Part shown: piece after piece, positions 14,791 to 45,302 of the stretch | Position numbering within the stretch: the stretch's first letter is position 1 | Layout: the number at the start of each line of letters is the position of its first letter | From: Tubulanus polymorphus | Taxonomy: Eukaryota; Animalia; Nemertea | DNA: 64,000 bases | Assembly: GCF_964204645.1 (NCBI RefSeq) | Contig: NC_134036.1 | Span: 7,726,812 to 7,790,811 of the forward strand | Reading direction: 5' to 3' | Position numbers and translations under genes: made by a program | The notes under the pieces: model-generated | The model's database searches: none | What the model was told of the DNA's origin: nothing | The model's input: the letters and a program-made list of their open reading frames with translations, nothing else

Positions 14791-14859
14791 GTTTTTCTCA
14801 TCGCATGATTTCTTTTTTAATCAGATATCAGTTTTCGGTTCATTCAAGCTCAACACGTT

Positions 14860-22200: not shown

Positions 22201-22862
22201 ATTGAGTTAGTCAGTAATGGCAAAAGAATTAGACATTTACAAACATATCCTAAGTTCATCGGTAACAGAATATTTGATGAAAATTTAGCTGCAGTTGAAA
22301 GGAGAACTTCTATGAAATTTAATAAACCAATTCATGTTGGAGCAACAGTTTTAGAAATATCATAGTTATTAATGTATGAATTTTACTATGACGTATTACA
22401 ACCTCATTTTGGAGAAAAGCATATAGAAATCTTATATTTTGACACTGACAGTTACATATTAAAGATAAAAACTAATAACATAACAGATGATTTAAAAACA
22501 TAAAAACATCATTTTGATTTTAGTAATTATCCTAAAGATCATGAATTGTTTAACAATGATAATAAAAAGGTGCCCGGTAAATTCAAAGATGAATTAGGAG
22601 GTGAAGAAATATAAAACTAAAACTCATGAATCAAAGAAATTGAAAGGAATAACCAAAAGCGTTGTTGAAAGAAAATATTCATTTCGAAGATTACATCAAT
22701 TGTATATTCAATGAAGAAGTTGGAAAACATAAGATGAAATGTTTAGGATCCGAAGATCATGAAATGTTTATTGAAGAGATAGAGAAGATAAGTTTAAACC
22801 CATTCGATGATAAAAGATATATTTTAGATGATGGTATACACACAGTTATGGTTGTAATATAG
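19255..22862 (+). pseudogene. polB: Intein-less pPolB pseudogene (element B)
   Basis: ORF fragments match pPolB; motif C is uninterrupted TAT TTT GAC ACT GAC AGT (YFDTDS) at 22435-22452. Confidence 0.92.
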
Positions 22863-24750: not shown

Positions 24751-24751
24751 A

Positions 24752-27158: not shown

Positions 27159-27248
27159 AGTAATTAGAAGATGGCGTTTTCAGATCAGAGTACGAGAGTA
27201 CGAGACACCACTCATCATCACAAGTAATTTTTTTTCCTAATAAATGGG
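27159..27248 (+). repeat. Left terminal inverted repeat of element C (~90 bp)
   Basis: Reverse complement of 44319-44408 with ~2 mismatches; ends at the TAAATG start of the first ORF. Confidence 0.95.
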
Positions 27249-27570
27249 AGATAGAAAAGCATTCTTAGCAACAATAAATAACAGAATAAAACCAGCAAAA
27301 AAACAATTTGAAATAAAAAAGTTAGTTGATGTTACAAAAGAAATTGAACATAAAATATTGAAATTAGAAAAGATAAAAACTAAATATGGAGAGAAAGTAT
27401 CAGCTAATTTAAGCTACTGTAATGTTAGTACATCGCGAGAATTTAAAGTGTTTTTACCCGATAAATGGGTTTCATTGAGTACGGAGGAATTGAAAGATTT
27501 AGTAGGATTTGAAATAATATATCATGGGAAAAATGAAGACGGTCATCATGATTTAGAAATTGTTGATTGA
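27244..27570 (+). CDS. Hypothetical protein (108 aa), possibly OB-fold ssDNA-binding
   Basis: Intact in A and C and starts inside the TIR. The KTKYG...FKVFLP beta pattern suggests an OB fold (inference only). Confidence 0.7.
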   Translation: MGDRKAFLATINNRIKPAKKQFEIKKLVDVTKEIEHKILKLEKIKTKYGEKVSANLSYCNVSTSREFKVFLPDKWVSLSTEELKDLVGFEIIYHGKNEDGHHDLEIVD

Positions 27571-27910
27571 ATAAGAAATAAAAATAATGAATATCTAGAA
27601 TCCAAAATGACCTTAGTCGTTTTATAAACAACTATAATCATACAGTACATCTGTTACATATTATTATAAGAGAGTGCTTCATTTGAATATTGATCAATCA
27701 AACAGGTGTTGCACAACGTTGTTGTTATATAATAAGCACGTAGTACATACAACACACACAAGCCAGTTAGCCGGTATTGAATTACTGTGTTTTCATTAGT
27801 TGCTGAAAACGAGGTTTATTTAAATTAGCTCGGCCGTGACGACAGGAGGATAGTCATCATTCTCTCGTGATTAAAAGGAATATTTCAATGTTTTTACGGT
27901 AAGTTTTAGC

Positions 27911-28190
27911 AAAATTGCCCTATCCTCGACCTACAGAGTTTTCAGGGGATAAGCATCCCATTATTGAAAGGCGCCACGGGACGCTTATCCCCCGTCATTT
28001 CTACTTACACCCCCGGCGACCCACATCAACCGGGATCTCCTTCAATGATTGGTAGAAATCACATTATATTAAAGGCGCCTAATGTAATTTCTACCAATCT
28101 CGAAATTCGAAATCGAAGGAGAAACCCGGAGAGTGGACGAAGGTGCATTTTCAAAATGCCTCTGCTGGCCAGAGCTACTCCAGTGGTTGA
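27911..28190 (-). ncRNA. Predicted ~290-nt multibranch structured RNA with two GGCGCC-loop hairpins
   Basis: Uninterrupted 17-bp (27945-27992) and 20-bp (28047-28099) stems on the minus strand (G-U allowed); compensatory changes versus copy A; upstream TATATAA (28201-28207, minus strand). Confidence 0.75.
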
Positions 28191-28552
28191 ATGAATTGCC
28201 TTATATACTTAGCTAAAACACCTAAGTAAATGTTGTTGGTGCTAAAAAAATATGTGAAATTTGAAATTATAAATTATTCCGAATGAAAAGAATGTAAGAA
28301 TGAAAACTGATAAATGAATTATGTATTTTTAACTTAATTATGATATAATTTTTAATCAAATTAGTAATCAATTACTATGTTAATTGATTAACAAATTCAA
28401 ATTCAAATATTCAAATAAAAACAAAATAAATTAATAAAAATAATGAATATCTAGAATCCGAAATGACTTATCTGGACAATTTAATTGCTCCGCATAGATG
28501 GTGCCATAAACGGCACCCACACAGTGATAGACAAAAGTAGTGAGATATTCAA

Positions 28553-28948
28553 TTAATTTTTTTGCTTTTTTTCTAAAATATTAATCCATTTTTTTATTAT
28601 CAATTTTGGAATTTCAGAAGTATTTTCATTTTTGATAGCAGTTGGTTCAGAATTACTAATATCATGAATTTTATTTGATTTCTTATACCAATTACACCCA
28701 ATCAAAATGAATACAATTACAAATCCAACTTTAAAATATAAATATTTATCAAATATTCTACTATCAGAAGGAGTAGAAATAACAATATTTTCACCATTTT
28801 TATTAACATTTTTATTACTTATTTTTTCTTTTACAGCTTTTTTATATTCTTGTGATTTAATTCCTAATTGTCGAGACCATTCAATTTGTTTCTGAGTTCT
28901 CGGTTTTTTCTTCACAGTTAATTCCTTCACTTCTTTCACCTCGCTCAT
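28553..28948 (-). CDS. Basic single-pass membrane protein (131 aa)
   Basis: Lys-rich N-terminus, transmembrane YLYFKVGFVIVFILIGC; homologues in A and B. Confidence 0.75.
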   Translation of the reverse strand: MSEVKEVKELTVKKKPRTQKQIEWSRQLGIKSQEYKKAVKEKISNKNVNKNGENIVISTPSDSRIFDKYLYFKVGFVIVFILIGCNWYKKSNKIHDISNSEPTAIKNENTSEIPKLIIKKWINILEKKQKN

Positions 28949-29486
28949 TTATTATAGAAATATTTTTACTTTCAATATTTGAAAATGTTATAACCCCAGT
29001 TGATAATAATGTCATAAATCCACCTAATTGAAATGATAAATATCCAATCCATTTATTTAATTCAGTCATAACTAAATAATCATTTTTTAAATCGGAATAT
29101 AATCTATTTTCATCTTCAATTGGTAGTATATAATTACATAATTTACTATAACCTTTTACTACATTTTCTGATATCGCGTCATTAATTCTAGCTGTTCTCG
29201 CGGCTTCATAAATCTTAAATAATCTAATAATTTCATCTGATTTCATTGTATCTAATTCATTATAAGTTAAATTTTTACCGACAAAATTTTTACATTTTCC
29301 AGATGCTATTAATATTTCTAATTGATGTTTACAATAAAGATAATATTCATAATTATTATTTGTTGTAACATTATTTAAAGCACCATCATCTGGAGTTAAT
29401 TTTGTTTCTGTTATTCCTAAATCATCTAAAGTTTTTTCAATTGGAACATCACCATTTTTAGATTTTATTTTCTTTTCACCTACCAT
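28881..29486 (-). CDS. Hypothetical protein (201 aa) with C-terminal hydrophobic segment
   Basis: Homologues in A (fused) and B (23852-24390). Confidence 0.8.
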   Translation of the reverse strand: MVGEKKIKSKNGDVPIEKTLDDLGITETKLTPDDGALNNVTTNNNYEYYLYCKHQLEILIASGKCKNFVGKNLTYNELDTMKSDEIIRLFKIYEAARTARINDAISENVVKGYSKLCNYILPIEDENRLYSDLKNDYLVMTELNKWIGYLSFQLGGFMTLLSTGVITFSNIESKNISIINERGERSEGINCEEKTENSETN

Positions 29487-29514
29487 TTATATAACAAAAA
29501 AATTAATTGTGTGA

Positions 29515-29770
29515 TGTTGCAACTAGAATTTAACTAGAATGTAACTAGAATTCAACTAGATTAACAAGTTAGTTGAAATATTGTTGTTTGTGTTTATTTC
29601 TTGTTAAATCTAGTTGATTTTTGTTTCAACTACTAACAACTAGAATTCAACTAGAATGTAACTAGAATTAAAATAGATTAACAAGCTAGTTAAAATATTG
29701 TTAAATCTATTTGATTTTTGTTACAACTACCAATAACTAGAATTCAACTAGATTAACAAACTAATTGAAT
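29515..29770. repeat. Intergenic array of short CAACTAGA(A/T)T repeats in both orientations (~120-bp higher-order unit)
   Basis: Repeated aactagaat units plus inverted aatctagttg copies. Confidence 0.8.
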
Positions 29771-30379
29771 TTAAATAAATTCATATTTAAATGGGTGTTG
29801 TAATCTAAATAGTAATTTTGATCTTTTAATATTTTTCAACTCATCCATATATTCATTATGTAAATCATGTGGAATAATATCATTTTCCTCAAGTGCATTT
29901 TTCATTGATTTTCTATCTTTATTGTAGAATAAAACTAGAAATCTAATGTTTTCTCTAAAGTCTTTAACAATTGAATTATATTTTTGATTTAAAACCCAAG
30001 TTGTTATTCCAAAATGTCTCCCAGAGAAAGCTAAATAACATAACTCACTTTCTCTAACTTTTGAATCATGTAAATTTGCGCAATCATCTATGATAAATAA
30101 TGTATTTGATCCTTTATAAATATCAATTGCTATTTTTATACAATTATCTAAATTTTCTTTTACTGTTTTAGGATCTAATATAATAAATTTATTATTTCTA
30201 GTAATGTTTCTGTCATAAGTTTGATTAAATTCATATGTTGGACAAAATAATACTATATTATCAAAATAGTTTTCATAAACAGTTTCTAATAAATTTAATA
30301 TAAAATAAGTTTTTCCACAATTTGTTACACCAGAAATTAACATATTATGAGGCTCAAATATAAATAATTCCTTATTCAT
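29771..30379 (-). CDS. A32/FtsK-like genome packaging ATPase
   Basis: Walker A GVTNCGKT, Walker B LFIIDD, SGRH motif. Confidence 0.92.
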   Translation of the reverse strand: MNKELFIFEPHNMLISGVTNCGKTYFILNLLETVYENYFDNIVLFCPTYEFNQTYDRNITRNNKFIILDPKTVKENLDNCIKIAIDIYKGSNTLFIIDDCANLHDSKVRESELCYLAFSGRHFGITTWVLNQKYNSIVKDFRENIRFLVLFYNKDRKSMKNALEENDIIPHDLHNEYMDELKNIKRSKLLFRLQHPFKYEFI

Positions 30380-31507
30380 TTATATATTTTTAATTTTACT
30401 TGATAATATCCATTCATTGAATTTATCTGGCCATCCAACCCATTTTACTAAAGAATATTTTTTTCTTTTAATAGTTTTTGTTTTTAATACTTTTTCAATT
30501 TTATATTCTTGTTCTAGATTTTCAGTAGTTAAACTTAATTCTTCTTCGTAAAAGTAGCCATCAACTTCTTCACCATCTAAATCTTCTAATTTATAGACAT
30601 ATGGTTTTGTTGTTATTACCTTTTTTATTTTATATATTTCTCTAGTAAAATTTCGATCGTATCCTTTGTCAAATATCTTTTTATACTTAGAAATTCTAAC
30701 ATTTTGACCAACTTTAAATTTAGGTTCACCAAAATCATCTACAAGAAATGCTCCATATAAATTATTCCAAACAATTTCAGCATTTTCAGGTTTTCTAGCA
30801 TCAATAGGTTTCATTCCAATAGAAGAATGATAAGAATTATTATATCCTTCTATCAATTTTGGTAAAACATCAATCCATTTAAAAGTATTATTTGCTGTAA
30901 AATATTTCCACATTCTTGTTCTTAATGTTCTATTAAATCGTTCAACAACTGCTGCTTTTTTATCTGATTTTGTTGAAAAATATTTAATATTATGATTATC
31001 TAAGAGTTCATGAACAAGTGAATTATCAAATTCTTTTCCATCATCAAATTGTATTTTTTCTGGTTTTAGTTTATCATCCGAAAGAAATTTTCTTAAAACA
31101 TTTGATGTTTGTACAGCATCTTTTCTATAAAGTGGGAAGCTCCATACATAACGACTAAAAATATCAATTATATTCAATATCCACCAATAATCATTATTAT
31201 CTTTTTTAAGATTTTTCATATCAATTAAATCTCCTTGCCACTGTTGATCTACATAACTTACCATAGTTTTACGAGTTTTATATTTTCTAACAATTTTTTT
31301 ATGTGTTGTATATGTTGGTTGTTCTAACATAAATTCATTTATATCTTTATATTTAACTAAATTTTGTGGGATTATCTTATCTAATTTATCTTGTTTTACT
31401 TTACACCATATATTTTTGGTAGAACAATAAGCAACCGAACTCTCAGGGTTGTAATATAAATTTCTTAAATATTGTTCTTTAGTATTAGGAGTTTTTTTAC
31501 CACCCAT
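30380..31507 (-). CDS. int: Retroviral-like (rve) DDE integrase with C-terminal chromodomain
   Basis: WQGDLIDM, IQFDDGKEF, VERFNRTL; chromodomain YKIEKVL...LVKWVGWPDKFNEWI. Confidence 0.95.
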   Translation of the reverse strand: MGGKKTPNTKEQYLRNLYYNPESSVAYCSTKNIWCKVKQDKLDKIIPQNLVKYKDINEFMLEQPTYTTHKKIVRKYKTRKTMVSYVDQQWQGDLIDMKNLKKDNNDYWWILNIIDIFSRYVWSFPLYRKDAVQTSNVLRKFLSDDKLKPEKIQFDDGKEFDNSLVHELLDNHNIKYFSTKSDKKAAVVERFNRTLRTRMWKYFTANNTFKWIDVLPKLIEGYNNSYHSSIGMKPIDARKPENAEIVWNNLYGAFLVDDFGEPKFKVGQNVRISKYKKIFDKGYDRNFTREIYKIKKVITTKPYVYKLEDLDGEEVDGYFYEEELSLTTENLEQEYKIEKVLKTKTIKRKKYSLVKWVGWPDKFNEWILSSKIKNI

Positions 31508-31537
31508 TTATATATCCTTAATCTTAACTTTATATTT

Positions 31538-32784
31538 CTAATATTGAATACTATCTAATTGTGAATTTACAATATTTAATTGTGCGTCAGATATAATATA
31601 AATATGCATTTTAAAATTTTTGATTCCTTTATTCTTTTTCATGAATAATTGTATTCCATCTTTAGTGTTCTGTAGTTTTTTTCCAGAACCATGTAATGAA
31701 TTATCTTCTGTTGTTCTAAAATCTAACCATAATGCATATTTATTACCGGTATAATAATCAATTTGATTAATGTTACAATTTTCAGATGATTTTACTTTTT
31801 CATTCATAAAATGTTTTCTAATTTCTGGCCATTGATCAATCATTCTCATTCCTTGACAAAATATTTTATTCGCTATTCCTTCGATAGTTATTTCTACTTT
31901 TGTTATTTCAGGATTATAATAATTATCAACATTTATTGCACCATTAGAATATGTTGCAATAGTAAAAAATATTAATATACCTTTAATAGATCTTCTAGGA
32001 AAGTTAATATTCTCATTAATTATTTCATCATTTGCATTAATAGTTACAGTTTTAAATTTATCAATATAATCATATAATAATGAAAATCCTTGATTGTATT
32101 GAGTTTGAATTGTGCTAGCAATATTTTCATTAGTTACTGTGTTATATTCTAAACATATATTCGATAATTTATAACCCATATCTTTAACAACGCTAGATAA
32201 TACAATTTCATTTACAGGAGCAAATGTTATCTCAAATATAATATCTTCTTGAATTGCGTATTTATATAAAGGTGCATTATTATTTATCAATTCAAAGTCT
32301 AATGGAATTTTATATTTGCTTCCATAAATCTTTTTAATCAAATTATCTACACCATTATTTACTACTGCGTTATTGGCTTCAGATCTTAATTTATTTTGGT
32401 TTTCTGATTGAATTCCTTGAAATATCATATTATTTCTATTTTTTCAGTTAACCATAAATCTTTATAATGTGAAAATAAATTATAATCATCTAATGAGAAA
32501 ACTGTTTCTGGACCAATCTTTATTGTTAATTTTTTAATCAAATATCTCCCAACATTATCAACAACATAATTATTATTATTACCGATTACTTTTATATCAG
32601 CTGATAAATAAATACTATTTGGAACATAAAAAGTATTTTGTGTTAATCTAGGAATTCTAACATATAAAGTTTCATCGGGATTAATATTTGAAGGGTTATG
32701 AGTAATTATATGATGTGATCTTTCTGCTTTAATAGCATTAGATATTCTATGATTCTTCGAAGGACTTATATAACTCCCACTCAT
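31538..32784 (-). CDS. Putative double jelly-roll major capsid protein (~415 aa), split by a 1-nt deletion in an A-run at ~32440
   Basis: Beta-rich, MCP-sized and adjacent to integrase/ATPase. The degraded homologue at 46755-46800 reads WLTKENIKNMIFQG in one frame, showing the two ORFs are one gene. MCP identity is inferred. Confidence 0.65.
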
Positions 32785-32804
32785 TTATTTAACAAAAAAA
32801 TTAA

Positions 32805-34235
32805 TTATTTATTTTTGATAATGTTTACTAAACCAAAAATAATAGCACTTACAACTGTAATTAAAAATAAAATAATATGTTCAGCAGCAAAGTTAAGAAT
32901 ATTCCCAGCAGATTTCAATATAAAACCAACAATTGAAGCAATAACTCCTGGTAATGCTGCAGCAGATTTCTTTGATAGTTCCCATAAATATTTTGCTAAT
33001 TTCTTTAAACCATCTTTAACTTTATCTTGTATAGAATTATTACCTGGAGGTTTATCTGGTTTATTTGGAGTAGGAGTAGATTTTAAAGCATTTGATATTG
33101 CTAAACCAATTGTTGTAAATAACATAGTTACAGCTGTTAGAATTGAAAGAACTGTTATTCCTTCAAACTTAAATAATAATCTTATTCTATCTTTCAATGA
33201 TATTTCAGAATTTGGTTTAATCAACAAATCTTTAAAAATAACTTTTAATCTATTAATATTATAATCATATGATTTTAATAATAATTTAATTTCTTCTTTC
33301 TGTACTTCTAAATTATCTTTTAAATTACTAATTTCTTTTTCTAAACGTAATTCTTTTTGCCTATATTCTATTTCATCAATTACTTGATGATCTAAATCAG
33401 ACTTTAATTGTTCTATTTCTTTATTTTTATCAGTTAATTTTTTTTCCAAATACATAATTTTTTGATCTCCTATACTTTTATTATGTGCAATTTTATCAGA
33501 TGCAAGTCTTATACTAATAATTTCTCTAATTGCTTTATCAGAAAATATATCTAAATCTTTTAATTCTTGATCTGTTGCATCAAATAATCCATTCGGTAAA
33601 AGTTTTTCAATTGGAACTTTATTTGATCTAAGTTTACTATTTTTGGAAGTTATATTCTGTTCAGAAGTTGTTTCTGTTTCTGATTTCTTTTTGATTATTT
33701 CAAATAATTCATTAATTCTTTGTTTAAATACATCTATATTATCATCTATTTCTTTTTGTGTAACATCAGTTATTTCATTACTATTACTTATTATTTTAAT
33801 TCTAAATGTTTCTAAATTTCTCAAAGTTGATTCTGATAATATTTTATTTTTATTATTTTTATAAGTGATATCAATATAATAATCACCTTTCAAACGATAA
33901 TAACATTTACCATTATCTAAAAATTTCAATTGATCTGCTAAAAGTCCAACGTCTTCATCATTTATGTTAAAATTAGATTTTTCAATTAAATATTCTAATT
34001 TAGGTATTTTGTTTAAATTATCTAAATCTTGTTTTACTAAATCTGGGTCTAAATTTTCAGGATTTAATTGTGATTCAGCATTTTTAATATAATCAGGCAT
34101 ATTTAAATTATTGTTATATTCTGGTTCATTACCATCATTAAAACTTGTTTCATCAAAATCAGGTGGTTGTTCATCAGTTATGTTAGGTTCATCAAAAGGA
34201 TCCATTCCAATATCTTCTCCACCTTCTACATCCAT
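32805..34235 (-). CDS. Coiled-coil protein (476 aa) with C-terminal hydrophobic helices
   Basis: Acidic N-terminus, heptad region, 2-3 hydrophobic segments; degraded homologues at ~8540-9672, 47140-48010 and 60725-61300. Confidence 0.8.
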   Translation of the reverse strand: MDVEGGEDIGMDPFDEPNITDEQPPDFDETSFNDGNEPEYNNNLNMPDYIKNAESQLNPENLDPDLVKQDLDNLNKIPKLEYLIEKSNFNINDEDVGLLADQLKFLDNGKCYYRLKGDYYIDITYKNNKNKILSESTLRNLETFRIKIISNSNEITDVTQKEIDDNIDVFKQRINELFEIIKKKSETETTSEQNITSKNSKLRSNKVPIEKLLPNGLFDATDQELKDLDIFSDKAIREIISIRLASDKIAHNKSIGDQKIMYLEKKLTDKNKEIEQLKSDLDHQVIDEIEYRQKELRLEKEISNLKDNLEVQKEEIKLLLKSYDYNINRLKVIFKDLLIKPNSEISLKDRIRLLFKFEGITVLSILTAVTMLFTTIGLAISNALKSTPTPNKPDKPPGNNSIQDKVKDGLKKLAKYLWELSKKSAAALPGVIASIVGFILKSAGNILNFAAEHIILFLITVVSAIIFGLVNIIKNK

Positions 34236-35565
34236 TTACATAATAAAAAAAATAAAATTTAAAATATAATATTCCTCCGATTACAATTCCTATACAAGTT
34301 ATAGCTAATTTAGTATTTTCATGGGATTTATTATCATCATTTAGTTTAATTATATCATGTTGAATTTTATCGGTTTTAATATCACCGTGTGGGTGCCGTA
34401 CGGCATCATTTTCTGTTGTATTGTAATCATTATTTAATTTAATATTCTTAGTTTTAGTTTCAGTTGATTGAATGTCTTTTTTATTTTTTTCACCTTCCAT
34501 TAATTTTGGAGCAGTAATAATCTTTTTATTTATATCATTTAATCCAATTGAATTATTCATTGTTGCAGTTTTAATTAGATTATTATAACCAATTATATTT
34601 CCCATCTTTAATACTAAATCATTAGAAATAATTAATAGATTAGGTCCTATACAATAATTTAATCTAATATGTGATTTATCTAAATAATTTTGATATCTTA
34701 CAATGTTTTCTGGAATCGATCTATTTTTATCATTATGAATGGAATCTTCAAATAATACTTTGAATTGTTTCTGCGCATCAAATGAAGTACTATTATTTCC
34801 AACTATTGGTGATCTTGTTTCAACTTGTGCACCTAAAATACATATCAAATAAGTTCTAATTGATTGATTTATTCTTTGTATACCGGGTTTTGTAAATCCT
34901 TCACTATAAGATTCAATAAAATAAACCCAACCATTATTATTATTAATTTCATAATTATGATAAGCTCCAATTCTATGCATATAATCAATTCTTTTTATTT
35001 CATACTGTTCACCGACACCTTGCAATTTACCATGCGCTCTAAAATCGAAATTAATATTTATATTAAATTCATTACATATTTTATAAAACTTAGATAGATT
35101 AATATTATTATCTAATTCTTTAAAATATTTTGATCCAGGTAAAGGGCATTCTAATTCATTTAATATAATTCTAATTTGAAAGTATACATGAAATCTAAAT
35201 ATTGTATGAATAAATTTTAAATCAGAATATTTCAAATTTTTATCTAAGTTATTCAAGTGATCATTGCAACTTATACCACAACCAGTTGTTGCACAATAAA
35301 CAGCAAAATTTAATTGGTTCTGCCAATATTTCATATTAGATTTTACTTTATATATATGATATTCATCTCGAGTAAAAGTAACTTCATATGTATTTAATAT
35401 ATTTTCCATTTTAGAAATAAAAAACTGTGATTCAGTAACATAAATTTCTAAATTAGTTAATGAATTTAAAACTACATTTTTATATGTAATATTTTTCTTA
35501 AAATCTATTGCCGGAATATTATATTTAATTGATTTATTATATTGGAAAGCTTTTGGAAACCCCAT
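34192..35565 (-). CDS. Hypothetical protein (457 aa) with C-terminal transmembrane anchor
   Basis: Long ORF with TAAATG start, WQNQLNFAVYCATTGCG motif and C-terminal LAITCIGIVIGGILYF. Confidence 0.75.
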   Translation of the reverse strand: MGFPKAFQYNKSIKYNIPAIDFKKNITYKNVVLNSLTNLEIYVTESQFFISKMENILNTYEVTFTRDEYHIYKVKSNMKYWQNQLNFAVYCATTGCGISCNDHLNNLDKNLKYSDLKFIHTIFRFHVYFQIRIILNELECPLPGSKYFKELDNNINLSKFYKICNEFNININFDFRAHGKLQGVGEQYEIKRIDYMHRIGAYHNYEINNNNGWVYFIESYSEGFTKPGIQRINQSIRTYLICILGAQVETRSPIVGNNSTSFDAQKQFKVLFEDSIHNDKNRSIPENIVRYQNYLDKSHIRLNYCIGPNLLIISNDLVLKMGNIIGYNNLIKTATMNNSIGLNDINKKIITAPKLMEGEKNKKDIQSTETKTKNIKLNNDYNTTENDAVRHPHGDIKTDKIQHDIIKLNDDNKSHENTKLAITCIGIVIGGILYFKFYFFYYVNGCRRWRRYWNGSF

Positions 35566-35581
35566 TTATATAACTAAAAAA

Positions 35582-36016
35582 TTAATAATTTATTAATTCT
35601 TTTAATAATTTATCTTGTTCTTCAACTGTTATATGGCCATTTAAACTTATTATATAATCTAGTGTGTTCTTTAATTTATTAATTTCTTTTATATTAGATT
35701 TTATTTTTTCTTTATTACTTTTTATATTTAATTTTGAACTTATACCAGTTAAAACACTTGAACTTAATCCTAATACACCAATTGATATAGCTAAAGGTGT
35801 TAATGGACTGAATATTGCTAAAAATGTTATTACAGAACTAATTGTAACCGAACCACTTATAATCAAATAATATATAATTTTACTTTTTAAATATTTTTTC
35901 TTTTTTATCTTTAAGTCACTTTCAAATTCTAATATTTGTTTTTCTAAATATGTTTTTAATTTAGTTTTATTTATATCATGAGGAATAATATCAATACTAT
36001 CAACTTTATCTTCCAT
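35582..36016 (-). CDS. Putative membrane protein (144 aa) with hydrophobic hairpin
   Basis: ~45-aa hydrophobic stretch flanked by Lys-rich coiled coils; 5' half also present in copy A. Confidence 0.75.
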   Translation of the reverse strand: MEDKVDSIDIIPHDINKTKLKTYLEKQILEFESDLKIKKKKYLKSKIIYYLIISGSVTISSVITFLAIFSPLTPLAISIGVLGLSSSVLTGISSKLNIKSNKEKIKSNIKEINKLKNTLDYIISLNGHITVEEQDKLLKELINY

Positions 36017-36035
36017 TTATTTAGAATAAAAATTA

Positions 36036-36458
36036 CTAATTAGTAAATTTATAAGCAACAAATATAACAATAACTGTTCCACCTAAAATCCATATTATTT
36101 CATATTTCTGTTGTTCTTTACTTGGGGTATAATAATCTGATAATTTAGGTTTGTATAGATGTAATTTTTCTTTATTTGTTACCGCGTTATATAAACTCAT
36201 TGCATCATCAACTGATTGAAAATCTCTATGTGAAATCTTCTGATCATATAATTCTTTATTGATGTAATCCATATAGTTTTGCCTCTTTTCTCTATATTCT
36301 TCTGCAGCTTTATTGTATTTCTCTAACGCTAAGTTATGTCTTCTTTGTTCTCCTAATGAACTATTTTTATCAATATGTTTAAATAAATAACCACCACCAG
36401 TAAATGCTAAAACGTTAACAATTGCCGATCCTATAATAGTTATAATTGCAGAAGCCAT
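36036..36458 (-). CDS. Putative membrane/structural protein (140 aa)
   Basis: N- and C-terminal hydrophobic helices around EQRRHN plus coiled coil; conserved in copy A. Confidence 0.75.
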   Translation of the reverse strand: MASAIITIIGSAIVNVLAFTGGGYLFKHIDKNSSLGEQRRHNLALEKYNKAAEEYREKRQNYMDYINKELYDQKISHRDFQSVDDAMSLYNAVTNKEKLHLYKPKLSDYYTPSKEQQKYEIIWILGGTVIVIFVAYKFTN

Positions 36459-36482
36459 TTATTTAGCAAAAAAATTATGCAT

Positions 36483-36704
36483 TTATATGGGAGGAATATA
36501 TTTTTGTTTTTCTAAATAATCAATAGTTAAATTAGATAAAGTAACTGCTAATGTTAACTTTAAAATATCATTTATATCAAATCTATCAACATTAACACTT
36601 CCCATTTTGAATACTTTTTTTAATACCATTGAATAACCAACCGTTCCAACTGATAGTAATGCGCCATTATATAATCCAGTTATTATCCACTTATCATCAC
36701 TCAT
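36483..36704 (-). CDS. Small putative membrane protein (73 aa)
   Basis: Two hydrophobic segments; conserved in copy A (4505-4726). Confidence 0.75.
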   Translation of the reverse strand: MSDDKWIITGLYNGALLSVGTVGYSMVLKKVFKMGSVNVDRFDINDILKLTLAVTLSNLTIDYLEKQKYIPPI

Positions 36705-37061
36705 TTATTTATCAAAAAAATTACTATCTTCAAAATATTTAGTTATCTTAGTGATGATTAATTCAACATTTATTTCATTACTAGTTTCATTTGTATATAT
36801 TTCAATTATTATTTTTTTAATATCATCGATGATAAAATCTTCATCTAATTCATAAAGTCTTAAAGATTCTCTAATTAAATTAGTAATCTTTTCTACATTT
36901 AAAGTTTCTTTATCTATTGTTGTTTCATACTCAAATGTTGTTTCATTAGAAAATACAATATTTTTGATATGTGTTATTACATCATTAATGTTAAATTTCA
37001 TTTCTTTTTCACGTTTAAAATCAAACCCAAAACATATACTCGGTCCAACAGTTATATTCAT
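36705..37061 (-). CDS. Hypothetical acidic protein (118 aa)
   Basis: Intact and near-identical in copy A (4148-4504); TAAATG start. Confidence 0.75.
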   Translation of the reverse strand: MNITVGPSICFGFDFKREKEMKFNINDVITHIKNIVFSNETTFEYETTIDKETLNVEKITNLIRESLRLYELDEDFIIDDIKKIIIEIYTNETSNEINVELIITKITKYFEDSNFFDK

Positions 37062-37077
37062 TTATATAGGTGAAAAA

Positions 37078-37875
37078 TTACTCTTTACATCTTATAACTA
37101 ATTCATAAATTACAGGAAAGTTATTCAAATCAATTAAATAACCATTATGATTTCTTATTTCTAATTTAAAATTATTGAAATGTGGAATACAAGGTTTAAA
37201 ATCACATTCAGCTAAATTATAATTTATTTGCGTTCCAAATTGTTTAACATTCTTCAATGGTAAAATGTTTAATATACTAGAATTACATGTTGTATCTTTA
37301 GTTGCTTCGAATGTTTTTGTAGGATCGATTAAATTGCAATAAATATAAAAGTGTGTAAAAGGTATTATATTTGAGTTACCGTGTTTGTTTCCACCAAATT
37401 GATTTGGAGTAATTCCTAATAGTTTAGCTATAGGTTTTTTTACCGTGTAAGTATGTATTCTTGTCATCAATGGATTAGATTTATCAAGTTTAATAAGTTC
37501 ATCATCAAGCTTTATTTTAATTTTATTAGAGCTCTCACTTTTTATGAATTTAATATTAAATTTAGAATTACCATTACCTAATCTAATCCGAGCTTTTCTA
37601 TTAATTTCTTGCTCTAATGTTTCTAAATCATATAATCCTGGTGTAAGCATAAGTTGAATCCATTTTTTTTCAAGTTTATCAAAAATAAGAAGGCTTCTAT
37701 GTTCATCAGTTTTATCCGATATATTATAAAAAGAATTACATAAACTTATATTTACTAATTTTAAATCTACACAATTCTTAAATTCTCTATCTAATTGTAC
37801 TAATAAATTATGAGATTTATAATTTATAAGTTTTCTAGAATCAACAAATATTCTGTATTCTTTTAATTCTACCAT
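37078..37875 (-). CDS. Putative minor capsid protein (penton, single jelly-roll)
   Basis: Pattern typical of Polinton/virophage pentons: IFVDSR, PGLY, FYIYCNLID, ILNILP, LEIRNHNGYLIDLNN..V..EL. Confidence 0.8.
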   Translation of the reverse strand: MVELKEYRIFVDSRKLINYKSHNLLVQLDREFKNCVDLKLVNISLCNSFYNISDKTDEHRSLLIFDKLEKKWIQLMLTPGLYDLETLEQEINRKARIRLGNGNSKFNIKFIKSESSNKIKIKLDDELIKLDKSNPLMTRIHTYTVKKPIAKLLGITPNQFGGNKHGNSNIIPFTHFYIYCNLIDPTKTFEATKDTTCNSSILNILPLKNVKQFGTQINYNLAECDFKPCIPHFNNFKLEIRNHNGYLIDLNNFPVIYELVIRCKE

Positions 37876-37943
37876 TATTTATAACATAAAAAAATTACCG
37901 CTCATCACTAAAAATTAATTTTAATAAAATTTTTCCTTAATAA

Positions 37944-39260
37944 ATGGATGAGAAGATAGCATGCGAAATTTGTCGTGAACTTCTAAGAAAAAGTAATATG
38001 GCTCGACATATGAAAAAACATGATGAAAATTATAAACCCCCTAAAATAAACTGTCAAAATTGTAATAAAACATTCTCTAGAAATTATTTCAAAAAACATT
38101 CAGAGAAGTGTAAAAATAATAACTTAATAGTTAATGTTGACAGTAACGAAAGTAATAATAATTCTGTTGAAGTTGAACCTGAAATTATTTGGAAAAGACC
38201 TTTCTTATTCTATGATAAGGATAATATAAAAGATCATTTCTGTGAGCCTTGTCGAATAAAATATAACCCTGAAAATATAGAAGATTGGGAGAATCATCAA
38301 TTTCGTAAAGTACATATAGATAAAATTTCTAATAAATTTGAAACTGAATTTAATGAAAGAAAAGATAATTTATTTAAAAAAATAAAATATGAGAAAACGT
38401 TACCAGATAATGAAGAAACAGTTGAAAAGTTAGAAAAACAATATAATGAATTAACAAGAAAAACATATTATTGTAAATATTGTAAATTGATTATTACAAC
38501 AAGTAATTCAAATCTACATAATAGAACAATAAAACATAAAGAAAACGTAAGAAAATACCAAGAGCTTAATGAAGATCTATTACCAGTAAATTATAAACAA
38601 AAATGTCCACGATGTATTTATGCGACCTTAAGGCAAGAAGGTACTGTGTTATTTTGTGTTGATTGTGGATGGCAAAGGAATTTATGGGGTGAAGAAAAAA
38701 CTAGAAATTTTCTTATAGAACCAAAATTAAATTATCTTGATGAAATTTTTAAAATATTTTCTATAGAAGATCATACACCAGAATATATGCAATGGCTTTA
38801 AAAAATGAAAATAATAGAAAATAAAAATGGTGAAATAACTAAAAAAGATATTATAAAAACAATTATTCCACCAACATTTAACACAAAACAAAAGAAAATG
38901 TATTTATATTTATTATTTAATGATTATTATGAAAAACCTAAATTAACAGAAGAAGATATGGAAAATATAAAAAAAATATTTAAACAAATATTAATGTATC
39001 ATTTGGAAAATAGAATAACAGATTCAATAAATTATGAATTCTTTTTAAATAAGATTGTAAATTATTTAAACCTAGATATTATAATTCCATTTGATGAATT
39101 AACAAACAAAAAGAAACAAAGAGTGCGAGATGAAATGTGGAACAAGATAGAACTTTATTTAAATGAGAAAAATGGAATGGAAGAAGAACCTAAACAATTA
39201 AATGAAAATGAAGAAGCCAATAGTGATTTCGAGTATGATGATATTGATTTTATGTTTTAA
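37944..39260 (+). pseudogene. Multi-zinc-finger protein (~438 codons) interrupted by one nonsense codon at 38799-38801
   Basis: Several CxxC...H motifs; copy A reads WLEKMK across the position that is TAA here. Confidence 0.75.
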
Positions 39261-42200
39261 TGGCCATAAGGTAATGTTTTTATACCATCATCTGAAATAT
39301 GCCTTTTATCATCAAATGGATTTAAACTAGTTTTTTCAACTTCATTAATGTACATCTCATGATCTTCTGATCTTAAACAATTCATCTTGTGTTTCATTAC
39401 AATTGATTTATATAAACACTTTATATAATCTTGAAATTCTATATGTTTATCAACCACATGTTTTGTTATTCCTTTTAACTTTTTAGCTTCATGATCTTTT
39501 GTTCTGTAACTATACATTTTACTTCTTATCCCAACAAATTCAATCATTTCATCACCTCCTAATTCATCTTTAAATTTACCAGGAATCTTTTTATTATCAT
39601 TACTAAATAGTTCATGATCTTTAGGATAATTGCTAAAATCAAAATGATGTTTTAATGTTTTTAAGTCTTTTGTTATATCATTTGTCTTGATTTTTAGTAT
39701 GTAGGCGTCAGTATTTTTTTGGATTAATGGGAACCCAGAATTGAATGTTCCATCATCTGTTGATAAATCATAAACATAGTCAGTTGGGTTATATATTTCA
39801 AATAAATCTTTAACTTCTTCTGTTAATTCTTTTTCTACATGCCTTAAATTAAAACAATTTGGTTTAGATTTAATTAATTCTATATTCATATTAAATCCTA
39901 ATGAACTGCATAATATATTCAATCCTGATATAGCAACTTTTCCTTTTTGAGCAAAGGATATTGTTTTGCGGTTTTGGAACCTTTTTGAACCATCTGCGGC
40001 ATAGAATCCAATGAAGAACCACTTTCTTAAATTATTTTTTGCATTCAATACATAATCTGGAACTATCTTTTCTTTTGTTGAAGTATTACTTTTCACTATT
40101 GCATGAATATAGAATTCATCATTATATTTTGTAGCAAAATCTTTAGGATTATTCACATGTATTCTATAACATTGCGATGATTTCATAACATCTATGATTT
40201 TGAATGTTTTATTTGGATAAACTTCTTCACAGAATTTCTTAATTCTTTCTAATAATTTTAAGTCTTGATTGCATAAATACCAACAATATTTAGTTCCACT
40301 AACATAATTATACACACCTGCTGAACCATCACCCATGAAAAATCCTTTAATAAAATATTCTTTTTCTTCCAATGTTTCAGGTTCTATATTATAAATATTA
40401 TTAATTATTTCATCAAATGACATATGATTCATTCTTGGGAAAAATCTTTTATGTAATAATTCATCTCCAATTTTTATATCAGTTGGTTTTATTTCATCAC
40501 CATTTCGTTTAATTAAACTATGATCTTCTGTAACATCTACAAATCCTAATTTAGTTCTAACTCTATAGATTTTCTTATTTGTTTTATGTCTAATAATATT
40601 CTTTAATTTTTTCCATCCATTTCTTGTCCAAACATCTATTAAACCATTTATTTGTATTAATTCTTTTTCTCCATATGAAATATAACATTCATTTTGTTTT
40701 GGAATTATTTCTGAAATTCTTCTTACCAATATTTTATTATTACATTTTAATAATATTGGGGTGTCAGCCATTACAGAATCAAAATATAATATTTCTATAT
40801 GTTTTTCCCCAAAAAGTGGTTGTAAAACATTATAATAGAATTCATACATCAATAGCTTTGAAATTTCTAAAACGGTTGAACCTATAAATATTGGTTTATT
40901 AAATTTCATGGACGTTCTTTTTAATTTTACCGCGGTTAAATAATCTTCAAACCTTTTATTTCCTAAATGTCTAGGACTTGATTGTAAATGTCTTAATCTT
41001 TCAGAATTATTTACTAATTCAATATCATTTCTATTTCTAATATTTTCACATGTTTTACCATAAAAACTATTATTCATTAATTTAAAGAAATCTTTTTCAA
41101 AATCTGTTTTTGATATGGTTCTCTGTTGAGTATTGAAATCTATATATTTTTCTAACCACTTCGATTGATTAAATTCAATATATCTATGTACTTTCTTTAA
41201 TTTCATTCCTTGTTTTAGATAAAATTTTAACATTCTATAATGAACAATATAATTGTATTTATTATTTTGAGTAAGTATTAATTTTTCTGTAAAAACATGA
41301 TCTTTCGGTTTTATTTTCTTCTGGTATTCACTTAAATAACTATCATCTACAGTTAAATGTTCTGGGCAATAAGGTAAGTTTCTTGTTTTAAACTTTATAT
41401 TTTCAGGATATTCTAAATCAACTACAAAGAAATAACCAATTGGTGCTTCATCTTTTAAACTAATAATTGCGCTTTCCCAATCAGTTTTATCACCATTTTC
41501 AACTTCTGTTAATATAAAATTTTTATATGGTTGAGGTTGCATCATTGCCCAACCATATAAATTATTGGCGTCAATATATAATAATTTATATTCATCATTT
41601 GCTTTAAAATACCTATCTCCCATAACACCACTAATTCCACCTCTAATTGATTTTTCAAATAATAAAACCATATCTGGTTCTTTTAATAAATCTAATTCTA
41701 CATTTGTATATTTTAAACCACATTGCCAGGTTAAACCAGGACTAGAGTAGCAATAACAAGGATCAACATTAAAATGATTCAAATTAACTTCTCTAAATTT
41801 TTCAAATATGTCAGCCAATATCATAACATCTGATTTTAAATATAAATCAACTAATTCACCATGATTTTTCATCTTAAAATGGTTCCAAATATTTAATGTT
41901 CTATTAAACACTTCATCTTTCACATACTCCTCTTTTAATTTATCATAAAATTGATCTTTTAATAATTTGGTTTCTTTGAAATCATCATGTGTTTTATAAA
42001 ATGAATAAGGAATTGCGCCTTTATATCTTAATAATTTAAAATCTTGGTCATTTGGATAATAATATCGAGTTATAACAAAATCATTATCAACTAAACTTTT
42101 TGATAAATTATCTAATGAACATGCTAGAAATCTATAAGAATCTAAAAATCTAATGCAACCAAATTGAAATGAAATATAATTTTCAGATGTTTTAGCTAAT

Positions 42201-43492
42201 AGTTTAAAATCATATTTTCTTACATTTACACCATTCATAGCATTATATTCTTCTATTTCTTGATTAATTGTACCCAATTTCTTTGATAATTGTTTTATAA
42301 ATAGATGGGTATCATAACCCGATAAATTATGAAATAATATTGGTACAAAATTTACTTTTTTAGCTTGTAAATTGCAATCTTCATGAGCAGCTCCACGATA
42401 TTTTGAATTTAAATGATTATGATCTCTAACTTTTTTATCAAATGAATAAAAACGTTTTTCACAATAACAACAATGAGTTGCATAATTAAAATCAATTTCA
42501 TCTTCTTTTGTCATAACTATTCTTTTATTTTTGTTTAATAATTTTGCAAAATCACTTTCTAATTCAATCATTTTATCACAAAAATCATTAACTACATTTT
42601 CACCTCTAAAAGAAATATATTGACTTTCATATAATTCGGGATAATTTGATTTTATATAAATTCCATAAGCAGCAGCTCTTTGATGAACTTTTTTAATTGT
42701 ATTTATAATTGGTGGGTCTTGAATTATATCTTCATTTAATTCACTTCCTTTATCCATTGATTTTAATAATTGTTTTTTGTTATATATTTCTTTTCTATCT
42801 TGATCAGTTAATTCTTTATTCAACGATTCAAAATCCCCATAAATTACAAATGGAACAATATTTTTAAATTTATGATTAGTAAATTTCAATTTATAATCTT
42901 TTTCTGTTGGCATTATTAATTTACAAAAATCTTTATTATCACATAATTCTTTATGTTTTAATAATGTATTCTCAGTTCTAAATTTAGATAAACATTTTCT
43001 ACATAGATAAATTTTATGGCTGTTAAAATCACTTTCTGTTCTAAAGAATAAATCAATTTGTTTTAACCACATATAATGTTCATTTTCATCTTTTTTGTAA
43101 TATAACAAATCTATAGCATTTTCATCATCATAATATTCTGTTAAATATAAAGCTTCCAATGTATAATCTTTAATATTTTCACCTTTTGTCTTTGGTAATT
43201 GCATTAATTCGAATACATTTATTTTTAAATTATTAATTTTTTCAATTTTAGGAATCATTTTTATAGTTACTGGATATTGATCAATTTTATATAATGTTTC
43301 ATATTTCCGATAATCTGTTATTCTACAAACATTTTCCTGTGTTGGATGTAAGCAACTAATAATTGACCATAGAAAACATTTATTATCTTCATTTTGAACA
43401 TTTATTACTGCTTTTGTTGTAAACGGTAATTTGATATAACTTGATGCTTTCATATCTTTTTCTGTTATAAAGTTTGAATCATTTTTAAACAT
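39257..43492 (-). CDS. polB: Protein-primed family B DNA polymerase with vOTU-like and EndoVII/HNH-like domains and an intein
   Basis: Motifs YGDFES (ExoI), FHNLSGYD (ExoII), YIDANNLYG (motif A), KLMNNSFYGK (motif B), YFD|TD (motif C, split by intein). N-terminal INVQNEDNKCFLW...HY is vOTU-like; CCYC...VRDHNH...YRGAAHEDCN is an EndoVII-like insert. Confidence 0.96.
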   Translation of the reverse strand: MFKNDSNFITEKDMKASSYIKLPFTTKAVINVQNEDNKCFLWSIISCLHPTQENVCRITDYRKYETLYKIDQYPVTIKMIPKIEKINNLKINVFELMQLPKTKGENIKDYTLEALYLTEYYDDENAIDLLYYKKDENEHYMWLKQIDLFFRTESDFNSHKIYLCRKCLSKFRTENTLLKHKELCDNKDFCKLIMPTEKDYKLKFTNHKFKNIVPFVIYGDFESLNKELTDQDRKEIYNKKQLLKSMDKGSELNEDIIQDPPIINTIKKVHQRAAAYGIYIKSNYPELYESQYISFRGENVVNDFCDKMIELESDFAKLLNKNKRIVMTKEDEIDFNYATHCCYCEKRFYSFDKKVRDHNHLNSKYRGAAHEDCNLQAKKVNFVPILFHNLSGYDTHLFIKQLSKKLGTINQEIEEYNAMNGVNVRKYDFKLLAKTSENYISFQFGCIRFLDSYRFLACSLDNLSKSLVDNDFVITRYYYPNDQDFKLLRYKGAIPYSFYKTHDDFKETKLLKDQFYDKLKEEYVKDEVFNRTLNIWNHFKMKNHGELVDLYLKSDVMILADIFEKFREVNLNHFNVDPCYCYSSPGLTWQCGLKYTNVELDLLKEPDMVLLFEKSIRGGISGVMGDRYFKANDEYKLLYIDANNLYGWAMMQPQPYKNFILTEVENGDKTDWESAIISLKDEAPIGYFFVVDLEYPENIKFKTRNLPYCPEHLTVDDSYLSEYQKKIKPKDHVFTEKLILTQNNKYNYIVHYRMLKFYLKQGMKLKKVHRYIEFNQSKWLEKYIDFNTQQRTISKTDFEKDFFKLMNNSFYGKTCENIRNRNDIELVNNSERLRHLQSSPRHLGNKRFEDYLTAVKLKRTSMKFNKPIFIGSTVLEISKLLMYEFYYNVLQPLFGEKHIEILYFDSVMADTPILLKCNNKILVRRISEIIPKQNECYISYGEKELIQINGLIDVWTRNGWKKLKNIIRHKTNKKIYRVRTKLGFVDVTEDHSLIKRNGDEIKPTDIKIGDELLHKRFFPRMNHMSFDEIINNIYNIEPETLEEKEYFIKGFFMGDGSAGVYNYVSGTKYCWYLCNQDLKLLERIKKFCEEVYPNKTFKIIDVMKSSQCYRIHVNNPKDFATKYNDEFYIHAIVKSNTSTKEKIVPDYVLNAKNNLRKWFFIGFYAADGSKRFQNRKTISFAQKGKVAISGLNILCSSLGFNMNIELIKSKPNCFNLRHVEKELTEEVKDLFEIYNPTDYVYDLSTDDGTFNSGFPLIQKNTDAYILKIKTNDITKDLKTLKHHFDFSNYPKDHELFSNDNKKIPGKFKDELGGDEMIEFVGIRSKMYSYRTKDHEAKKLKGITKHVVDKHIEFQDYIKCLYKSIVMKHKMNCLRSEDHEMYINEVEKTSLNPFDDKRHISDDGIKTLPYGH
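39713..40777 (-). mobile_element. Intein with LAGLIDADG homing endonuclease (355 aa) in pPolB motif C
   Basis: Block A SVMADTPILL, block B VTEDH, endonuclease blocks FIKGFFMGDGS and FFIGFYAADGS, block F YVYDLST, C-terminal KN followed by Thr. Removal restores YFDTD. Absent at the same site in element B. Confidence 0.95.
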
Positions 43493-44323
43493 TTTATTAC
43501 TTTTTGATGTTTTATTCCTTTTTGTATTATAAACATTTAAATCTAAATATATAATTCATCCAATGTTAAGCCAGAACCCTCAAAATATCTTTCTTCAATA
43601 TGACGTTTAAATTCATTTAATATTTTTTCTAACTTCTCTTTTATTTGTGTTTTTGAAATTATTTCTTCAGAGTGTGTTTGAATATTATAATTCATTTTTT
43701 CTTCTGACTTTATAAAACTTACTTTCCCAGAGATACTAATTTTTGGATATTCAACATCTGTTATCAAATCTAGTATTTTTTCTATTATTTCATTAAATTT
43801 ACTATAATCTTCTATTGTTGTACCTTTAAAGAATCTAAATATAATAGCTGCAGGACCAATTTTACTATGTAATGTTTCTAAGATTTCAATTGTATCTTTT
43901 ATTTCTAGTGAATCAATATAATTTCTAACATTTTCCATGTAAGGTTTATTTGAAATGGATTTAGTTTTTGAAGTTGATTCTTTTACTTTTTGAGGTTTAT
44001 TATCAAAATAATCTTCTCCTAAAACATTATTACTCAAATTTTGATGGTGTTTTTGTGATTCGAGATGTCTATTATAATTCCTTTTTACTATAAATTCATT
44101 ACAAACTTCACATTTTATTTCATCCACATTCATATTTTCTAATCGTTCTTTTCTTTCATTGGAATTTTTCTGGAGTTTCAAAATCTATAACATTTTTTAT
44201 ATGATTTGAAGATTTTTCATGTTTAGATTTATTAGATTTATCGATGTATTTTTTACAATATTGACAATAATATTGATTTTTATTGACATTATTGTTTTCT
44301 AGTTGCTGTTCATTCTCCCCCAT
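43493..44323 (-). pseudogene. N-terminal extension of pPolB (two C2H2-like zinc fingers plus probable terminal-protein region), split by two 1-nt frameshifts
   Basis: ATG at 44323 (MGENEQ...YYCQYCKK...H...H). Frameshift ~44180 leads into ORF 43543-44181 (CEVC...H...H; EGSG); frameshift ~43550 leads into the main ORF. The homologous region of element B (19750-19810) reads through as EGSGLIFDEIIFMTLHVYN. Confidence 0.8.
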
Positions 44324-44408
44324 TTATTAGGGAAAAAAATTACTTGTGGTGATGAGTGGTGTCTCGTACTCTCGTACTCTGATCTGAAAACGCCATCTTC
44401 TAATTACT
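44319..44408 (-). repeat. Right terminal inverted repeat of element C (~90 bp)
   Basis: Matches left TIR; ends ...TAATTACT followed by TSD TATAAA; contains the pPolB start codon (44323). Confidence 0.95.
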
Positions 44409-45077
44409 TATAAATATCACAGTGTTTGGATATCACTGTTATTCCAACTATCAGTACCCATGGGATTATTTGGGATTAATTCTCAGCGTCAGAATACGTA
44501 TTTCTAGAACAGTGGAACAGCAGCCTACTCGTGACTGAAACCCGTATGTGATCGTGCGGGAACGCCTTTACTAAAGTTAAAACCATTTCCTGATGACACG
44601 AAACGGTAAACGGTAGGCTACCACCATGATACGATATCACCAATAAAGATAGATCATTTTATTCAATTTTACTAGTGTTGTTTATTGGAGGAAAATATCA
44701 TTGTTAAGTACGCCGAGAACAACTATGTTGTATTATCAATCAGTTGACTGACATTGTAAAATTCGATTGGGCTATATTGTCATATAAGTTTTCTTTTCAG
44801 GACGTGGCGAGAGTCAAGTAGCGAAAAACGTCCCCCGGGTCAGCAGGCAGGCAGGGCGGCGCGGCCGGTCGGACGGAGGCGGCGCGCCTGCTGCGCACTC
44901 ATAAGGCGGTAGCACCCTCTTACGCACTCGGCAGAGATTCGCTTTGTAATGCGCGCCGGAGAAAAATACCTTTTATTTTCTTTTCCATGCGTTAAACAAC
45001 AGTGATTGAATTTACGCTTTGTTTGCAATATTGCGATGGTTATTTGCCGCTGCTGTAGTTTTTTGGAATTGAATCGA

Positions 45078-45302
45078 GCGGCCTTGGTAGCTCAGTGAGA
45101 TAAGGCGTGATGCTGTTGAATCCACTATCAATGCTGAGTGACAAGTGGGTTCGAGTCCTGCTGGCTGCGAACAGTGTGCGGCAACACTTCAAAGGCCGTT
45201 CCGTCGTGAGGTTAAATGAACAATCCAATGGGAATAGTCTTGGGAATCCATGATCCAAACGACGTACGTAAAGCCAAACAAACAAAAAGACAAACAAACA
45301 AT
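45078..45302 (+). mobile_element. tRNA-derived SINE
   Basis: A box TAGCTCAGTG, B box GGTTCGAGTCC, unique body, (CAAA)n tail. Confidence 0.65.

Follow-up and report, generated by a model that had tools for sequence, protein, structure and literature searches.

The question raised by this locus is what a 355-residue insert is doing inside the catalytic centre of a DNA polymerase, and by what route it came to be there. The stretch analysed, which we call the window, consists of 64,000 nucleotides of contig NC_134036.1 (positions 7,726,812 to 7,790,811, forward strand) from an assembly labelled Tubulanus polymorphus, and the polymerase is the protein-primed family B DNA polymerase (pPolB) of a Polinton/Maverick element, here called element A. 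We read the insert as an intein at the pol-c site that carries a homing endonuclease and resides in the polymerase of an integrated Polinton; it is predicted to splice, is likely to home, likely stems from an old giant-virus source and probably sits in an animal genome. We put the probability of this reading as a whole at about 0.7. A first-pass annotation, made from the letters of the window, had found the in-frame insert between the Asp and the Thr of motif C at 39713..40777, and its coordinates and motifs proved exact, but it missed a second filled copy, an empty copy and a wider family of related inteins.

The insert and its empty counterparts

The polymerase is encoded on the reverse strand by an uninterrupted open reading frame of 1411 residues (39257..43492; PF03175, E 9e-19), with Exo I-III, motif A and motif B all intact. 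Its motif C is read in two halves on the same strand, YFD (40778-40786), which ends at residue 905, and TDAY (39701-39712), which starts again at residue 1261. The residues between them (906-1260) are translated from 40777 to 39713 as 355 amino acids, stop-free from S1 to N355, with the flanks YFD/SVMADTP...GFPLIQKN/TDAY, where a slash marks the junction.

All the splicing blocks of an intein and two LAGLIDADG motifs, as listed in the first-pass annotation, can be read in this translation, and the regions that hold them follow one another along the reverse strand. The N-terminal Hint region (about residues 1-112; 40442..40777, boundary approximate) contains blocks A and B, the latter as VDVTEDHSL at 80-88; it matches TIGR01445 intein_Nterm at 30.8 bits, above the cut-off of 24.5, and is beta-rich in the fold model. 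The LAGLIDADG endonuclease region (about residues 113-317; 39827..40441), recognised by profile and by motifs, matches LAGLIDADG_3 at 31.3 bits, above the cut-off of 22.5. It holds block C (FIKGFFMGDGS, 142-152; 40322-40354), block D (KEKIVP, 235-240) and block E (FFIGFYAADGS, 254-264; 39986-40018), and within blocks C and E we read the LAGLIDADG motifs GFFMGDG (D150) and GFYAADG (D262). Both acidic residues of a LAGLIDADG endonuclease are present, as is the Lys of block D (K237). The C-terminal Hint region (39713..39826) was recognised by its motifs, block F (VYDL, 335-338, without the block-F His) and block G, which ends in KN.

Ser1, T83 and H86 of block B, the terminal Asn355 (preceded by K354) and Thr+1 are the residues of a class 1 intein, and S1, T83, H86, D337 and N355 are unchanged in 82/82 aligned sequences. 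Removal of the insert restores the polymerase reading, as seen in an empty copy in the window, in empty relatives and in sequencing reads that skip it. The junction YFD/TD has the same D/T position as YGD/TDS of Mimivirus, which bears out the earlier assignment to the pol-c site of giant-virus family B DNA polymerases (PolBs), and the intein clusters with motif-C inteins, away from those of a second site in PolB. By these sequence criteria the insert is a true class 1 intein at the pol-c site, and splicing is predicted. The penultimate Lys in place of His, which had been noted as a peculiarity, is present but is no oddity: we rejected it as a defect because Lys is the usual state of this allele, found in 100/111 relatives in RNA-primed PolBs, Mimivirus among them. 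The residue after TD is Ala, whereas the canonical residue is Ser, and Ala is also present at this position in empty relatives.

A fold model built from an alignment of 57 rows has a predicted local distance difference test (pLDDT) value of 94.4 and a predicted template modelling score (pTM) of 0.93, whereas a single-sequence model gave a pLDDT of only 38. The best match of the aligned model in the PDB by Foldseek is TliVMA (E 9e-17, TM 0.65), followed in order by PI-PkoII, PhoVMA, PI-PfuI, PI-SceI and then I-DmoI. As modelled, the insert has a Hint plus LAGLIDADG fold, as in intein homing endonucleases. This fold is what it has in common with archaeal pol-c inteins and with PI-PkoII, TliVMA and PI-PfuI; the archaeal inteins differ in that their hosts are cellular RNA-primed polymerases, and identity to archaeal intein endonucleases in the structural alignments is just 14-17%.

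Three copies of the pPolB lie in the window, two of them filled (A and B) and one empty (C). Copy B, in a related Polinton, has its polymerase at 1-1982 and its intein at 461..1526, both on the forward strand; the intein is 93.6% identical in nucleotides to that of copy A and carries one frameshift (near 1393), and each extein carries one stop. Copy C is a decayed polymerase (approximately 19848-22847) with an empty pol-c site, YFD/TDS, at 22435..22452 on the forward strand, its junction falling between 22443 and 22444. The boundaries of the intein are fixed independently by copy C together with reads from which a net 1065 nt are missing. These reads come from X7, a raw DNA run that is independent but bears the same species label, of which about 12% was covered and 7850 reads were placed at a threshold of at least 88%.

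Depth in X7 ranged from 244 to 349 over the seven bins of flank closest to the intein and from 89 to 255 across the eight bins within it. In eight reads 39712 is followed exactly by 40778 (the first mate always on the forward strand, with 6 start points) and 21 make the same join with nine other letters, which read T-D-S, bringing the skipping reads to 29; 8 further reads have unknown letters between the two sides. The first codons of the intein are covered by about 218 reads, and the empty share among close copies comes to about 12-15%, a figure from which more divergent empty copies, falling below the threshold, are missing. Both alleles coexist in X7, with the filled one in the majority. 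We rejected an assembly artefact or chimera as the source of the insert on account of the second filled copy in the window, the continuous read depth through the intein, and contig pieces from two other runs that extend across the N-terminal junction. A separate observation concerns the letters that follow the insert: filled copies A and B have T-D-A after the intein (39704-39712), whereas 21/29 exact-length empty-site reads have T-D-S, and this contrast may be the mark of a conversion tract or of a recognition site.

The carrier element and its host

Element A spans 27159..44408 (17,250 bp), with AGT...ACT ends and the target-site duplication TATAAA, of 6 bp, on either side. Its terminal inverted repeats (TIRs) of about 100 bp are found at 27159..27261 (forward strand) and 44304..44408 (reverse strand), the first 55 nt of the left repeat being the same as in the right one. 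Besides the polymerase, the reverse strand encodes a retroviral-like integrase (30380..31507; rve, E 6e-10, with a weak C-terminal Chromo match, E 8e-4), an A32-type packaging ATPase (29771..30379; Pox_A32, E 2.5e-13) and a probable major capsid gene in two frames with a break near 32430 (31538..32784; Capsid_N, E 0.009, weak). The Atlas neighbours of the probable capsid carry NCLDV (nucleocytoplasmic large DNA virus) capsid families on 10-18% of their members, with a low recognition score. A VLTF3-like open reading frame on the forward strand (38805..39260; Pox_VLTF3, E 2e-6) is convergent with the polymerase, and the element also encodes a zinc-finger protein.

PF03175, PF00665 and PF04665, for the pPolB, integrase and ATPase of a Polinton, are all above cut-off, and the ends are those of a Polinton as well. 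Element A is an integrated Polinton/Maverick, and its TIRs and TATAAA duplication uphold the first-pass description of the carrier as integrated in host DNA. The target duplication and the many related copies in another sample together suggest a probable germline insertion. A minor capsid candidate (37078-37875) had no family match in Pfam and further profile searches, and the open reading frame at 34192-35565 had no usable match in Atlas. For adenain there was no Pfam match among the element's listed open reading frames and none when part of the element was scanned for its motifs, searches that divergent or decayed forms could escape.

Some observations weigh against our reading, and each of them is given from here on beside the part of the reading that it touches. 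With regard to the host, we consider an animal quite probable on the indirect evidence of the window. The same intein and mechanism could also belong to a protist or a fungus, which we hold to be a minority case but one with a real share of the probability. No host gene lies within the 64-kb window, the remainder of which consists of repeats, and giant viruses with pol-c inteins mainly infect protists and algae (PMC5784728). The repeats themselves speak for an animal. A decayed Penelope-like retroelement (54677-56900, reverse strand), with a reverse transcriptase and a GIY-YIG-type end, has 66 matches, and all six of those that name an organism come from animals (four ants, a lancelet and a brittle star), although these six are distant relatives at 28-36% identity, while other matches reach 40-57%. 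Repeats saturate the window, among them the head of what resembles a tRNA-derived short interspersed nuclear element (SINE) at approximately 45076-45150 (forward strand), in which A-box and B-box-like motifs were recognised by eye; ARAGORN and Rfam returned nothing in the window, this head included. The weak chromodomain match of the integrase is likewise as in animal adintoviruses.

Relatives of the intein, its origin and its spread

We searched for related inteins with a query of precursor residues 927-1281, that is, residues 22-355 of the intein and 21 extein residues, and classified the best 120 of the 582 matches. Six of these are protein-primed polymerases with an intein at the same D/T site (identities: P0003 63%, P0004 49%, P0005 46%, P0007 47%, P0010 43%, P0012 41%), and the remaining 114 carry PF00136 of RNA-primed PolBs, Mimivirus included. 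The P0004 cluster comprises 136 sequences; the 15 listed members, which lie on contigs of 0.06-1.0 Mb, comprise 7 full ones (1537-1539 aa), 6 empty ones and 2 too short to score. A search based on the polymerase gave 118 additional proteins, of which 104 are empty, 2 are full (P0157 and P0178) and 12 could not be scored, and the three closest polymerases (71% identity) are all empty. A fragment from a search of 50% representatives, P0289, has 75% identity in the intein and 86% in the C-extein. Same-site inteins are found, then, in other Polinton-type polymerases, among which one family comprises full as well as empty copies, and both LAGLIDADG acidic motifs are retained in 8/8 full-length pPolB inteins.

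Among 191 loci from IMG/VR and JGI metagenomes no intein was found in a pPolB context, where two of the three scans took in the best 80 matches only, so that this is not proof of absence; the junction is YGD in 168/174 scored junctions of these best-match loci. Related inteins at a VGD/ junction, unlike the YGD/ of giant-virus-like loci, occur in IMG/VR loci L028, L029 and L034-L036. Several viral-type RNA-primed PolBs (P0006, P0008, P0009, P0013, P0014, P0034 and P0047) contain two related inteins, in motif C and in motif B at KxxxN/S. The pPolB class of element A also shows, in its N-terminal part, a match to endonuclease VII (HNH-like) that is distinct from the intein and lacks a Hint domain (residues 335-375 approximately in P0002), present as well in the relatives P0004, P0010, P0133 and P0144 and at 20718-21080 of the window; this insert resembles the type earlier suggested to derive from inteins.

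Intein trees were built from 127 rows and then from a careful subset of 53 rows, thinned by hand, and were rooted on second-site PolB inteins. In these trees the pPolB inteins form a single clade (support 100/100), which is nested among the motif-C inteins of RNA-primed PolBs through four well-supported branches, and monophyly of the RNA-primed PolB pol-c inteins is rejected by the approximately unbiased test (p-AU 0.016). The pPolB inteins are 37-41% identical to giant-virus-type PolB pol-c inteins, and several of the polymerases that carry the latter match contigs of giant virus metagenome-assembled genomes (GVMAG) at 99-100%. On the extein tree, which has 48 rows (8 full and 40 empty) thinned from a larger set, the presence of the intein requires at least 6 changes, and a grouping of the full copies as one extein clade is rejected (p-AU 4e-71). 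The intein of P0007 is 46.5% identical to that of element A, and their exteins are without significant similarity; because the intein lies inside the clade and the exteins are dissimilar, it probably jumped between polymerase classes, although the place of P0007 inside the clade is not settled (p-AU 0.315).

The first-pass annotation had supposed that the intein came from a co-infecting large DNA virus. The separate intein and extein phylogenies proposed along with it agree with a source of this type, in that the closest non-Polinton relatives are giant-virus-type PolB inteins, but they do not agree with a recent jump in this host. Base composition is matched between intein and extein (guanine plus cytosine, GC, 25 vs 23%; at third codon positions, GC3, 14 vs 12%) and the pPolB intein clade is old, and on these grounds we rejected recent acquisition; the acquisition appears old because the divergence of the clade tracks that of its polymerases. 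The simplest reading would be one old acquisition from a giant virus, followed by homing and loss within sublineages.

We propose that element A is transcribed and translated as a precursor of 1411 residues, in which the motif-C aspartates D905 and D1262 are separated by 355 residues, so that an active polymerase would need splicing. The Hint domain would then carry out class 1 splicing, as its conserved residues and fold suggest: an N-O shift at Ser1, aided by T83/H86, would be followed by transfer to Thr+1 and by cyclisation of Asn355, which would restore YFDTDA (for the general intein chemistry behind splicing and homing, see PMC7765530). The freed endonuclease would cut an empty site elsewhere, and repair off the filled copy would install the intein there; such a step is suggested by catalytic motifs that are intact, by purifying selection, by full and empty alleles side by side and by the patchy distribution of the intein. 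Over longer times the trees suggest a single transfer from the RNA-primed PolB of a giant virus to the pPolB of a Polinton, after which the intein would have co-diverged with its hosts, been lost and re-invaded, probably with a single jump into a second class of pPolB.

Selection on the endonuclease bears on whether the intein still homes. The ratios of non-synonymous to synonymous change (dN/dS), all of which come from the single pair of copies A and B, are 0.05 and 0.07 for the exteins, 0.18 for the whole intein, 0.19 for the endonuclease region (21 synonymous and 20 non-synonymous changes, Fisher p 7e-7) and 0.38, from few sites, for Hint-N. In this pair of copies the endonuclease is under purifying selection. 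An intein that splices but no longer homes, passed on by vertical descent and giving rise to empty alleles through repeated precise loss, is at odds with this selection and with the acidic motifs retained in all eight full-length inteins, and very many losses would be required to leave 2 full polymerases against 104 empty ones. The unrelated extein of P0007 also argues against it, as does an N-flank that filled P0004 and P0178 have in common even though they belong to different extein subclades; their empty neighbours are without that flank, a small hint of co-conversion. On the other side, the extein tree agrees by and large with the intein tree, and the main pPolB class shows nearly equal identities for intein and extein (for example 49.6 vs 46.6% and 42.8 vs 42.6%), a pattern that repeated loss under vertical descent would fit too. 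We consider descent without homing unlikely, and read the family as one with signs of continuing homing.

A donor other than a giant virus, either an unsampled archaeal, phage or eukaryotic-virus source for both groups or a flow from Polintons to giant viruses, is in our judgement still less likely. The intein trees were built without archaeal or phage pol-c inteins and do not settle which group is sister to the pPolB clade, the stem of that clade is long (0.38-0.59), and the p-AU of 0.016 rejects the alternative only moderately. Set against this are the four supported branches through which the nesting runs, the predominance of RNA-primed PolBs among the best 120 matches, and the best-matching viral and metagenome loci, among which no pPolB extein was found and nearly all of which have YGD at the scored junction.

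That the domain does not splice at all, being tolerated or inactivating, with filled copies dead or reliant on the polymerase of empty copies, is very improbable: the penultimate and block-F His residues, common but not obligatory in class 1, are both missing (the latter is scored missing in 83/111 viral-type relatives by a simple pattern that counts its own misses as missing) and the probable capsid gene of element A is broken, but most alleles in X7 are filled, the exteins of A and B are strongly constrained, and the five splicing residues named above are invariant. Two further points belong on the negative side, namely that the match to Pfam Intein_splicing (28.1 bits, E 2e-6) stays under its cut-off of 35.8, and that element A may be non-autonomous today, because its probable capsid gene is broken.

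To our preferred reading of the locus as a Polinton pol-c intein that likely homes, a wider claim can be added, at odds slightly better than even: that this is an actively homing, Polinton-borne intein family of animal nuclear genomes, which crossed once from a giant-virus pol-c site, spread over the lineages of several hosts and jumped between polymerase classes. If this is true, animal genomes are not free of inteins, and Polintons once shared cells with giant viruses.

Known systems and other features of the window

The PolB intein of Acanthamoeba polyphaga mimivirus (APMV) resembles that of element A in the motif-C D/T site, in Ser1, the terminal Asn and Thr+1, in the penultimate Lys, in a length of about 350 aa and in two LAGLIDADG motifs, and the two are 38% identical. 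As extracted here from P0103, the Mimivirus intein has 351 aa, its published length. It was defined as a pol-c intein in PMC549080, which describes the pol-c position as common to archaeal PolB inteins. The polymerases differ, since the pPolB of element A is without significant similarity to Mimivirus PolB, and in contrast to the pol-c inteins of Nucleocytoviricota the carrier is an integrating Polinton of 17 kb, of which the nucleus has many copies, and not a giant virus. A single homing event between such dissimilar polymerases was considered unlikely in PMC549080; contrary to that expectation, the intein allele here appears to have crossed between polymerases with no detectable similarity beyond a short motif. 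The intein would be a dated marker for gene flow out of giant viruses into Polintons. Giant viruses and Polintons are the two sides of a proposed virophage-like relationship.

Element A shares TIRs, the 6-bp duplication, pPolB, rve, the A32 ATPase and, probably, a capsid gene with Polintons and animal adintoviruses (PMC8502044, PMC10748475). The inserts of Polinton pPolBs described in PMC10748475 are HNH or VSR domains, whereas here a full Hint-domain intein lies within motif C. In the portions of these two papers that were available, main texts and supplements, the word intein is missing, and the supplement of PMC8502044 probably holds no protein sequences. According to PMC11071308, which cites PMC10748475, the endonuclease inserts of Polinton pPolBs were suggested to stem from intein invasions, and with the present locus this suggestion becomes a testable case.

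Klebsormidium, Tetrabaena and a labyrinthulid (PMC10710043) are similar in having a virus-borne polymerase intein in eukaryotic nuclear DNA. They differ in that the hosts are algae and a stramenopile and the genes are termed viral-like polymerases, with Polintons unmentioned in the accessible text of that paper, and in that the carrier here is multicopy and a single genome has filled as well as empty alleles of it. A survey of 2018 (PMC5784728) counts 257 eukaryotic and 136 viral inteins, with Iridoviridae among the viruses; in its accessible part the hosts named are fungi, algae, amoebae and a choanoflagellate, along with large DNA viruses, but no animal. PMC12220804, PMC13768754 and PMC5718144, in the parts available, treat inteins in general terms only. 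Our literature search, outside which subscription journals, Repbase entries and bioRxiv supplements lay, turned up no intein described from a Polinton or from a pPolB, and none of this kind from the nuclear DNA of animals. The pol-c allele is a known one, but the host protein class, the carrier and probably the kingdom appear to be without an earlier report. With many full and empty copies in a single genome, the homing cycle of invasion, co-conversion, decay and loss should be readable at population scale.

At least three related Polinton copies, together with fragments, are present in the 64 kb (1-7768, 8700-11075, 19412-26480, 46514-47911 and 60736-61291), and this clustering suggests either an insertion hot spot or recurrent insertion. 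Part of a related copy of the capsid gene is found at 46471-47113 (reverse strand), 2 kb past the right terminus of element A. A non-coding stretch with a raised GC content (27570-28410), situated just within the left end of element A, has an 88% match in copy B at 6480-7360, and may be either a repeat nested in the element or a component of its end. A dispersed repeat family of about 1-1.6 kb, decayed and partly reverse transcriptase-like, with members 85-93% alike in both orientations, occupies 11368-14800, 57090-59327 and 62957-64000.

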